A stretch of DNA of 64,000 nucleotides, taken from the NCBI GenBank assembly GCA_964468345.1, contig CAYXVZ010000024.1:2632-66631 (forward strand), written 5' to 3'. Shown here in pieces: positions 6,922 through 8,459 of the stretch (the stretch's first letter is position 1; every line of letters starts with the position of its first letter). The DNA is from an uncultured Heliobacteriaceae bacterium. Lineage in GTDB: Bacteria > Acidobacteriota > Blastocatellia > RBC074. Made by a program: the position numbers and the translations under genes. The notes under the pieces were generated by a model, which searched no databases, had not been told where the DNA came from, and saw only the letters and a list, made by a program, of their open reading frames with translations.

Positions 6922-7698
6922 TCAACCGAATCGTCCTTCGATGTAATCGGCAGTTTTTGAATTTTGGGGATTGGTGAAAACGTCGTCCGTCGTGCCGCGC
7001 TCGATGACTTCGCCGAGCAGCATCAGGACGCACTCATCGCTCGCGCGGCGGGCCTGGGCCATGTTGTGCGTCACGATCAGGATCGTGTATTGGCCCTTCA
7101 GCCGGAACATCAGTTCTTCGATGGCGCGCGTGCCCTCGACATCGAGCGCCGAGCAGGGTTCGTCCATCAGGATCACTTCGGGTTTGAGCGGCAACAGGCG
7201 GGCGATGCAGAGCTTCTGTTGTTGTTCGAGCTGCAGCGAAATCGCCTCGTCCTTGAGCCGGTCCTTGAGATCATTCCATAAGCCGACCTCGGTCAGCGCC
7301 GACTCGACGACGGCATCCAGATCCGAACGGTGCAGCTTGGTTCGTTCGTTGTGGATGCGCAATCCGAAAACGATATTTTCATAGATGGAGATGGGCAGCG
7401 GATTGGGACGCTGGAAGACCATGCCGACGGCCTTGCGCAATTCGATCAACGAAACATCTGGATCATAGATGTTCTTGCCGAGCACTTCGATCTGGCCTTT
7501 GGTGGTTACATTGCCATATCGTTCGTTGATCCGGTTGAAACAGCGGAGCAGCGTCGTCTTTCCGCAGCCGGACGGGCCGATCAGCGACGTGATCAAACCG
7601 TGGCGAACATCGATCGACACGTCGCACAGCGCGCGAAAATCGCCGTACCAAAGATTCAGCCCGCGGGTCTGTATGCTGTACTCAGGGATCCGATTCAT
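6922..7698 (-). CDS. pstB: Phosphate ABC transporter ATP-binding protein PstB, paralog 2. Walker A, Walker B and H-loop are consensus; the ABC signature is degenerate.
   Basis: GPSGCGKTT Walker A, Q-loop VFQRPNP, ILMDEPCSALD Walker B/D-loop, VTHNM H-loop. The signature LSGGQQQRL is replaced by LQLEQQQKL. Strong full-length PstB similarity, including the C-terminal YIEGRFG. Confidence 0.88.
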   Translation of the reverse strand: MNRIPEYSIQTRGLNLWYGDFRALCDVSIDVRHGLITSLIGPSGCGKTTLLRCFNRINERYGNVTTKGQIEVLGKNIYDPDVSLIELRKAVGMVFQRPNPLPISIYENIVFGLRIHNERTKLHRSDLDAVVESALTEVGLWNDLKDRLKDEAISLQLEQQQKLCIARLLPLKPEVILMDEPCSALDVEGTRAIEELMFRLKGQYTILIVTHNMAQARRASDECVLMLLGEVIERGTTDDVFTNPQNSKTADYIEGRFG

Positions 7699-8459
7699 CC
7701 AAATATGCCGTTGACGTATTCGTAGGTTTGCCGGCTCGCCGGGTGATCCGAGAACACCGTCGCGGTGTCGTTCAACTCCACAATCTCGCCTTTCCAGAGA
7801 AACATCGTGCGGTCCGCCAGGCGTCGCGCCTGTTGCGTCAGATTGGTCACGAGGATGATCGTTATTTGCGATCGCAATTCCTGGAGGGCTTCTTCGATGC
7901 GCATCGTCGTGACCGGATCGATGGCGATCGAAAACTCATCGAGACAAAGGACCTCGGGATTGTGCGAAAGGGCGCGGGCGATGGTCAGCCGCTGTTGCTG
8001 GCCGCCGGAAAGTTTCGTCCCCAATGTATCGAGGCGGTCTTTTACCTCGTCCCACAACGCGGCTTTGCGCAGGCACGATTCAACGAGTTCATCGAGCCGC
8101 CCTTTTTCCCGTAAGCCGGCCATGCGCGGCGCAAAAGCGACATTATCATAAATTGTCATCGGCAACCCGACCGGCAGCGGCGCGACCATGCCGATCTTTT
8201 GCCGCAACTCGGAGACGTTTCTGATCCGGGCGGTGTCCGCGCCGTCCAGCTTCACCGATCCGCTCACCGTCGCCATCGCCGTGAATTCCAGCGTGCGATT
8301 GAGCGCCTTGAGCATGGTGGTCTTGCCCGATTGCGCCGGGCCGATCACGGCCAGCACTTCATTCGCATAGACATCGAAGGAAATGCCCTTGAGCGCGGCG
8401 AGCTTCCCATACGCGACGCGCAAGTCCGTGACTTCGATTTTTTTCTCTCGGTTCACCAT
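7695..8459 (-). CDS. pstB: Phosphate ABC transporter ATP-binding protein PstB, paralog 1. The signature is consensus; Q-loop, D-loop and H-loop are degenerate.
   Basis: GPAQSGKTT Walker A, consensus LSGGQQQRLTIAR signature. The Q-loop Gln is absent (MVAPLPV), Walker B/D-loop reads VLCLDEFSIAID, and the H-loop His is replaced by Asn (ILVTNLTQ). Start chosen at MVNREKK (ATG 8459); the 53-aa upstream extension would overlap pstA. Confidence 0.85.
   Translation of the reverse strand: MVNREKKIEVTDLRVAYGKLAALKGISFDVYANEVLAVIGPAQSGKTTMLKALNRTLEFTAMATVSGSVKLDGADTARIRNVSELRQKIGMVAPLPVGLPMTIYDNVAFAPRMAGLREKGRLDELVESCLRKAALWDEVKDRLDTLGTKLSGGQQQRLTIARALSHNPEVLCLDEFSIAIDPVTTMRIEEALQELRSQITIILVTNLTQQARRLADRTMFLWKGEIVELNDTATVFSDHPASRQTYEYVNGIFG

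Follow-up and report, generated by a model that had tools for sequence, protein, structure and literature searches.

Tandem pstB genes with complementary motif losses suggest a phosphate importer ATPase with one catalytic and one degenerate ATP site

How can a phosphate importer be driven by two different PstB-type ATPases, neither of which carries the full set of ATP-binding cassette (ABC) motifs? The question is raised by the genes pstB1 (7695..8459, 254 residues) and pstB2 (6922..7698, 258 residues) on the minus strand of a 64,000-nucleotide stretch of contig CAYXVZ010000024.1 from an uncultured Blastocatellia bacterium. The term "window" is used for this whole stretch throughout the text. 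Both genes belong to a compact minus-strand operon (6510-11298) with the gene order pstS-pstC-pstA-pstB1-pstB2, which we take to encode a high-affinity phosphate ABC importer of the Pst type. Judging from the sequences, we consider it likely that their products form an obligate PstB1-PstB2 heterodimer, in which one ATP site is catalytic and the other degenerate. The motif states of both proteins, their conservation, the strict pairing of the genes, the co-divergence of the partners and their single origin were established directly and are described first.

Motif states and their conservation

Motifs were called by residue-by-residue alignment to E. coli PstB (PDB 9k3x chain C) and by re-translation of the motif coordinates, all of which refer to the minus strand. 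In PstB1 the Walker A motif reads GPAQSGKT (8319..8342), with Gln in place of the fourth residue, usually an invariant Gly, and with Lys and Thr kept. Its Q-loop MVAPLPV (8169..8189) carries Pro for Gln, and its H-loop VTNLT (7836..7850) Asn for His. The Walker B and D-loop segment LDEFSIAIDP (7914..7943) retains Asp-Glu and has IAID for SALD, the A-loop Tyr17 is kept, and the signature LSGGQQQRL (7986..8012) corresponds to the consensus. PstB2 shows consensus sequences in Walker A (GPSGCGKT, 7555..7578), Q-loop (MVFQRPN, 7402..7422), Walker B and D-loop (MDEPCSALDV, 7138..7167) and H-loop (VTHNM, 7060..7074); its signature LQLEQQQKL (7210..7236) is degenerate compared to LSGGQQQRL of E. coli. 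The full consensus set was found in neither polypeptide, with PstB1 missing the Q-loop Gln, the H-loop His and the Walker A Gly4, and PstB2 missing S-G-G of the signature. A preliminary description of this DNA had reported a PstB2 with consensus Walker A, Walker B and H-loop and the signature LQLEQQQKL, and a PstB1 with consensus signature, lost Q-loop Gln, IAID in the D-loop and a His to Asn exchange in the H-loop. Both accounts were confirmed by the alignment to E. coli PstB, in which the motifs remained degenerate. The Walker A exchange of PstB1 is an additional deviation missing from that description.

For both proteins the PstB model TIGR00972 was the top-scoring NCBIfam family with an end-to-end match (273.5 bits for PstB1, 326.5 bits for PstB2). 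The ABC ATPase domain PF00005 was detected with 89.2 and 88.9 bits in the two ATPases at a gathering cut-off of 25. The best PDB match of both was E. coli PstB in the cryo-electron microscopy (cryo-EM) structures 9k3x and 9k3s of PstSCAB (E=6.8e-78 and 4.6e-62). Both are stand-alone nucleotide-binding domains (NBDs) of about 255 residues encoded beside importer permeases of the BPD_transp_1 type, and no exporter transmembrane domain is fused to them. Their genes follow directly downstream of PstS-family, PstC and PstA genes, all three of which score above their own cut-offs.

The conservation of the motifs was determined in the 120 best database homologues of each protein, the PstB1 set being 74-100% identical; the closest named homologues were labelled Acidobacteriota/Blastocatellia, at 77-82% identity. 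None of the 120 PstB1 homologues carries the H-loop His. The sequence DEFSIA[IV]DP is present in all 120, V[AS]PLPVG in 119 and the consensus signature LSGGQQQRL in 118 of them. Among the PstB2 homologues LQLEQQQKL was found in 116/120 and L.LEQQQKL in 118/120, while MVFQRPNP and VTHN are kept in 120/120 and GPSGCGKT in 119/120. The deviant motifs sit in invariant columns of both family alignments, among the most conserved of each protein, and their conservation goes far beyond what chance would give. An identical copy of PstB1 occurs in eight independent assemblies, and the gene order was the same in the three that were read in detail. Because the deviant motifs are near-invariant in the best homologues of each protein, we do not regard PstB1 and PstB2 as products of decay.

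Strict pairing and origin of the two types

A search with the PstB1 alignment against one genome per GTDB species yielded at least 80 loci, which represent a sample and not a census. Every PstB-like open reading frame (ORF) in the 80 loci listed and in five further loci was typed by its motif state. PstB1-type proteins were defined by a missing Q-loop Gln and an H-loop Asn, PstB2-type proteins by consensus sequences in all Walker-side motifs combined with a non-consensus signature. Organism names are those of the deposited metagenome-assembled genomes (MAGs). All following counts on pairing, classes and invariance hold among the matches listed. A PstB2-type gene was located directly next to the PstB1-type gene in 54 of 54 loci with at least 600 nucleotides of downstream sequence. 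In three PstB1-type loci the partner is missing, and each of them breaks off within 207 nucleotides of a contig edge. No PstB2-type gene was found in the 26 loci whose matched gene was a canonical pstB. The gene order pstA-B1-B2 was observed without exception, with B1/B2 junctions overlapping by 4 or 1 nucleotides in 20 of the 52 other pairs. Whether further pst operons of Acidobacteria show the same paired degeneracy, as asked in the preliminary description, was thereby answered positively, and the pairs reach far beyond this group. They span Acidobacteriota, Verrucomicrobiota, Planctomycetota, Poribacteria, Omnitrophota, Nitrospirota and other groups.

Two classes of pairs were distinguished. 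Class I, to which the window belongs, is characterized by LDEFSIA[IV]DP and VTNL in PstB1 and by the partner signature L(Q/T/S)LEQQQKL. Its members are labelled Verrucomicrobiota (including Limisphaera sp. 4302-co), Acidobacteria/Holophagales, Planctomycetota/Pirellulales, Poribacteria, KSB1, Fibrobacter, Gemmatimonadota, Binatia, Bacteriovoracaceae/Halobacteriovoraceae and 'delta proteobacteria'. In class II pairs the D-loop is normal (SGLD) and accompanied by MVFA.P. and V(T/S)NNT; the partner signature is L(S/T/P)xEQ(Q/K)QRL, and the labels are Omnitrophota, Firestonebacteria, Desantisbacteria, Aminicenantes, Nitrospirota, Syntrophorhabdus, Desulfobaccales, Planctomycetales and others. The altered D-loop is restricted to class I. 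Common to all pairs are a PstB1 without Gln and His and a PstB2 with a changed signature.

Invariance was counted in 48 complete pairs. Walker A (S-G-C), Q-loop Gln, Walker B Asp-Glu and H-loop His of PstB2 were each found in 48/48 pairs, as was L-S-G-G-Q of PstB1. On the other side, PstB1 had the H-loop Asn in all 48 pairs and the Q-loop Gln in none. PstB1 also kept the Walker A Lys, Asp-Glu in 48/48 and an aromatic A-loop residue in 43/48 pairs, and its fourth Walker A residue was N, Q, K, G, R or A. In the PstB2 signature positions 2 and 3 are variable, and position 4 is Glu in every pair (48/48). The filter for pairs had demanded this Glu; the unfiltered typing table was also without exception. 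Three loci carry the signature LSGEQ, and Gly to Glu at position 4 is therefore the minimal change. The fourth Walker A residue of PstB1 covaried loosely with positions 2 and 3 of the PstB2 signature over the 48 pairs. N or Q occurred with x-L (QL, TL, SL), G or A mostly with an acidic third residue (x-D/E: SDE, SEE, PDE), and R with S-G in two of three loci. This covariation is compatible with a direct contact across the site formed by these two motifs, and equally with a phylogenetic cause.

The history of the two types was approached with an unrooted neighbour-joining tree of 129 PstB-like sequences (100 bootstraps), which is a crude method. PstB1-type proteins formed one clade (73/100) and PstB2-type proteins another (75/100), with both class I subclades (100/100 each) nested within class II. 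Pairwise distances of PstB1 proteins across loci correlated with those of their partner PstB2 proteins (r=0.91, 1128 comparisons). As judged from these sequences, the simplest history would be a single duplication, followed by complementary degeneration and then by co-inheritance of the two genes.

In two loci, L060 (54-10210, Planctomycetota) and L040 (5459-15728, a MAG labelled Eubacteriales), a canonical pstSCAB-phoU operon adjoins pstSCA-B1-B2-phoU. Some genomes at least therefore contain the pair type together with the canonical type, suggesting a functional niche of its own for the former.

Some neighbouring cases were also recorded. The Gemmatimonadaceae MAG locus L076 (6949-8669) contains a tandem of two pstB genes with fully canonical motifs, resembling that of Firmicutes; a tandem of pstB genes need therefore not be of the degenerate type. 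In three Poribacteria loci (L012 9699-12034, L016 10547-12163, L017 10486-11938) the PstB1-PstB2 pair is followed downstream by a PstB-like gene of a third kind, with the motifs GPTNCGKST / MVFRKPI / LSTGQQQLL / FDEPCGELDP / ATNKR. These three copies form a clade of their own (100/100); a weak PstA-like ORF precedes the gene in L012, and phoU is next in all three loci. In the database ORFs P0151 (386 residues) and P0245 (388 residues), the C-terminal portion of a PstB1-type protein is apparently continued by PstB2-type sequence; a frameshifted gene call at the ATGA overlap or a genuine fusion might account for this. As a possible third kind of pair, the PstB-like protein P0273 (signature LSIGQ) was considered and dropped, since it is encoded by a single gene after pstCA.

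A predicted heterodimer and competing explanations

NBDs of ABC transporters dimerise head to tail, and each ATP is held between two subunits, one contributing Walker A and B, Q-loop and H-loop and the other its signature. For PstB this geometry was seen directly in the ATP-bound state (PMC12976172). Applied to the two proteins, site 1 would consist of Walker A, Q-loop, Walker B and H-loop of PstB2 and of LSGGQ of PstB1, and is predicted to be fully consensus and catalytic. Site 2 would combine the PstB1 Walker A with its Gly4 to Gln exchange, the Gln-less Q-loop and the Asn H-loop with LQLEQ of PstB2, and should be degenerate. One consensus and one degenerate composite site were already predicted in the preliminary description. 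This prediction gained support, with the deviations mapping to one site and the elements of the other being invariant in 48/48 pairs. Only the mixed dimer gives a complete site, because a PstB2 homodimer would be without LSGGQ, and a PstB1 homodimer without Q-loop Gln and H-loop His, in both of its sites. For this reason an obligate heterodimer is favoured, and the sequence logic argues against functional homodimers of either protein. Heterodimer formation, the lack of hydrolysis at site 2 and the ATP stoichiometry were deduced from the sequences together with what mutations of signature, Q-loop and H-loop are known to do in other ABC ATPases, and are worded here as predictions. The stop codon of pstA and the start of pstB1 overlap by 7 nucleotides, as read from the junction sequence, and those of pstB1 and pstB2 by 4 nucleotides (ATGA); both overlaps fit a co-translation in equal amounts, as do those seen in 20 of the 52 other pairs.

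As PstB1 keeps the A-loop Tyr, the Lys-Thr of Walker A and the Asp-Glu of Walker B, site 2 probably still binds a nucleotide, with hydrolysis being slow or nil. About one ATP would then be spent per cycle. The signature Glu of PstB2 would place a negative charge where the gamma-phosphate of ATP meets the signature, and probably affects the tightness with which site 2 closes. The CFTR variants G551D and G1349D also carry an acidic side chain at position 4 of LSGGQ, the latter in the signature that completes the degenerate site of CFTR, as the Glu of PstB2 does here (PMC2151620). G551D abolishes the ATP-driven closure of the NBDs, while G1349D makes ATP binding hinder closure (PMC2151620, PMC4178940). 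Since the PstB2 Glu occupies this very position, the analogy suggests an unusual behaviour of site 2, with ATP failing to bring about the normal closure. Whereas the CFTR variants are disease-causing point mutations of a channel, the Glu described here is the wild-type residue and conserved across many phyla.

We are fully aware that several points weigh against this model. The bootstrap values of 73-75% for the two clades rest on a simple neighbour-joining tree, and the genome survey covers a sample. Both proteins, with 326.5 bits (PstB2) and 273.5 bits (PstB1), stay below the trusted cut-off of TIGR00972 (343.2). PstB1 retains the catalytic Glu of Walker B, which most degenerate exporter sites have lost, and residual hydrolysis may occur at site 2. 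AlphaFold2 monomer models had low confidence, with predicted local distance difference test (pLDDT) values of 59.1 for PstB1 (30-sequence alignment) and 66.1 for PstB2 (33 sequences), and were set aside; the input alignments were too shallow and too similar. Finally, the tandem PstBs of Enterococcus faecalis are not equivalent in function, and PstB2 can do without its partner there (PMC12096839). Adjacency alone is therefore no proof of an obligate heterodimer; both enterococcal proteins are, though, canonical in their motifs.

Beyond being a dead ATP site, site 2 might represent a conserved pocket repurposed for regulation. The signature Glu, the H-loop Asn and the polar or basic fourth residue of Walker A could then hold a nucleotide or ADP/Pi without the canonical closed sandwich. 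We regard this as a tentative and rather doubtful extension. If it were true, it would mean a one-ATP-per-cycle economy and/or a built-in brake tied to the energy or phosphate status of the cytoplasm, and it would apply to a widespread class of Pst importers that stands beside canonical Pst in some genomes as a transporter of distinct function.

Among the alternatives to a single catalytic site, we consider it unlikely that both composite sites are catalytically competent. The exchanges of His for Asn and of Gln for Pro or Ala, and the Glu of the signature, would then merely re-tune the second site, and the complex, although asymmetric, would go on hydrolysing two ATP per cycle. This would agree with the retention in PstB1 of the Walker A Lys, of Asp and catalytic Glu in Walker B (48/48) and of an aromatic A-loop residue (43/48). 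It would agree too with the replacement residues, which are conserved and not random (Asn 48/48, Glu 48/48); the signature Glu would perhaps even be part of catalysis or product release. However, three separate catalytic elements of one and the same site were changed together. Substitutions of the H-loop His and of Ser or Gly in the signature cause a drastic drop in ATPase activity in HlyB, MalK and HisP. CFTR, moreover, loses ATP-driven NBD closure or is impaired in it when an acidic residue stands at signature position 4 (G551D, G1349D; PMC2151620, PMC4178940).

Still smaller is the chance we give to separate roles of the two proteins, one serving as transport ATPase and the other as an accessory or regulatory pseudo-ATPase, such as a PhoU-like brake or signalling partner. 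The precedent is E. faecalis, where pstB2 is required and pstB1 accessory (PMC12096839). In addition, no PhoU-like ORF was found within the 64-kb window, so that some regulatory function might have moved elsewhere. Nevertheless, phoU is kept at many related pair-type loci, and PstB1 is thus no general replacement of PhoU. A poor ATPase would be expected of a PstB2 homodimer, which would have no consensus signature in either site. The two proteins complement each other in their defects, the elements of the consensus site are split over both proteins and invariant, and the partners are strictly paired and co-diverge.

That one paralog is decaying after the duplication, under relaxed selection or as a pseudogene, or that the motif differences are artefacts of alignment or sequencing, has virtually no chance of being correct: the scores below the curated PstB cut-off would agree with it, but both reading frames are intact, PstB1 is identical on eight independent contigs, and the deviant motifs are conserved in 120 homologues of each protein and across many phyla. 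Pseudogene, decay and membership in a different ABC subfamily, the first and last of which had been raised in the preliminary description, were all rejected on the basis of this conservation and of the family scores, with TIGR00972 as best family.

The predicted heterodimer with one catalytic site has counterparts among exporters. Heterodimeric ABC exporters with one degenerate site comprise TM287/288, TmrAB, BmrCD, PatAB, TAP1/2 and CFTR (PMC7756269). As in these systems, there are two different NBDs, with Walker-side deviations on one, the signature deviation on the other, and one site that is fully consensus. Unlike them, PstB1 and PstB2 serve a type I binding-protein-dependent importer as separate subunits, keep the Walker B Glu, lose the Q-loop Gln, and show an altered Walker A residue 4 and an invariant signature Glu. 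The pair would share their degenerate-site architecture and operate as they do; as stand-alone NBDs with importer-type permeases the two proteins are not members of the exporter group. Reviews of degenerate sites treat exporters (PMC7756269). Among importers, RbsA and NupO of the CUT2 type also have one degenerate ATP site (PMC11466899). In contrast to the pair of the window, their NBDs are fused in one polypeptide, the degenerate Walker A is without Lys, and transporter family and substrates differ.

Within the Pst family, Firmicutes such as Enterococcus faecalis likewise possess two adjacent, non-identical pstB genes after pstA (PMC12096839), and PstBA and PstBB of Bacillus subtilis were modelled as PstBA-BB-C-A-S (PMC11466899). 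The Firmicutes tandem has canonical, identical motifs, whereas each PstB of the window lacks elements that are supplied by its partner. According to the E. faecalis paper, no other study had addressed tandem pstB paralogs (PMC12096839). E. coli PstSCAB (cryo-EM 9k3s, 9k3x, 9k3y; PMC12976172) represents the same transporter family and shares the operon core and the C-terminal motif Y-x-x-G-x-(F/Y)-G. There, unlike here, two copies of one PstB sandwich two ATP in two identical consensus sites; the structure paper describes two identical PstB, and heterodimers or degenerate sites go unmentioned (PMC12976172). A description of complementary degeneracy or of a heterodimer in PstB was not found in the open-access literature, and we found no earlier description of a degenerate-site heterodimer architecture in the type I importer family Pst.

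Degenerate ATP sites have so far been studied almost entirely in exporters and CFTR. Pst is among the best-known binding-protein-dependent importers and was treated as having two identical PstB, also in the cryo-EM work of 2026. An asymmetric PstB1-PstB2 engine, occurring from Acidobacteriota and Verrucomicrobiota to Omnitrophota and Nitrospirota and sometimes beside a canonical pstSCAB-phoU, would serve as a natural experiment. With it one could ask whether one hydrolytic site is enough to drive a type I importer, what role a degenerate site plays in an importer, and what a phosphate ion costs in ATP in oligotrophic bacteria of soil and water, among which these lineages are dominant. The finding also concerns annotation. 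Both proteins, just below the cut-off of the curated PstB model, are publicly annotated by the plain PstB-type name "phosphate ABC transporter ATP-binding protein" (e.g., RefSeq WP_423430048.1).

Operon layout and neighbouring genes

Upstream of the two ATPase genes, all on the minus strand, the operon encodes the periplasmic phosphate-binding protein PstS (10285..11217, 310 residues; TIGR02136, 224 bits at a cut-off of 206.6, and PF12849). The permease subunits are PstC (9376..10269; TIGR02138, 281 bits, cut-off 196) and PstA (8453..9379; TIGR00974, 252 bits, cut-off 193). For pstS the ATG of public gene calls (contig L086) was taken as start and re-translated, the mechanical ORF reaching 11298. 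Likewise, the ATG at 8459 was used for PstB1 according to public gene calls and homologues, the mechanical ORF reaching a GTG at 8618. No further PstB-like ORF was found within the 64-kb window. A promoter and terminator scan of 6300-11600 gave nothing above the shuffled expectation, and Rfam and tRNA scans of the window gave no matches.

Directly upstream of pstS, 13 class I loci have a gene for a long protein with a PhoU-domain match, and no short phoU after pstB2. It comprises 364 residues in L001 (2967-4061), and open frames of about 375-465 residues occupy the equivalent position in L006-L011, L013, L014, L019, L020, L022 and L023. The window is without this gene and has a divergently transcribed gene for a GNAT acetyltransferase there (11444-12406).

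On the other side, starting 7 nucleotides past the pstB2 stop, lies a minus-strand gene (6510-6914) for a protein of 134 residues whose only domain is the DNA-binding one of MGMT (PF01035). At its active site PWYRV replaces PCHRV, with Trp in place of Cys, the hallmark of alkyltransferase-like (ATL) proteins. The PF01035 gene also follows pstB2 in the near-identical contigs L086 and L087. Two plus-strand genes lie beside the operon, one (3219-5063) for a TPR-repeat protein with a C-terminal pair of B12-binding domains and the other (5125-6351) for a protein with weak PAS-domain matches, none of which reaches the Pfam per-stretch threshold. Both of these neighbours recur in the near-identical contig L086.

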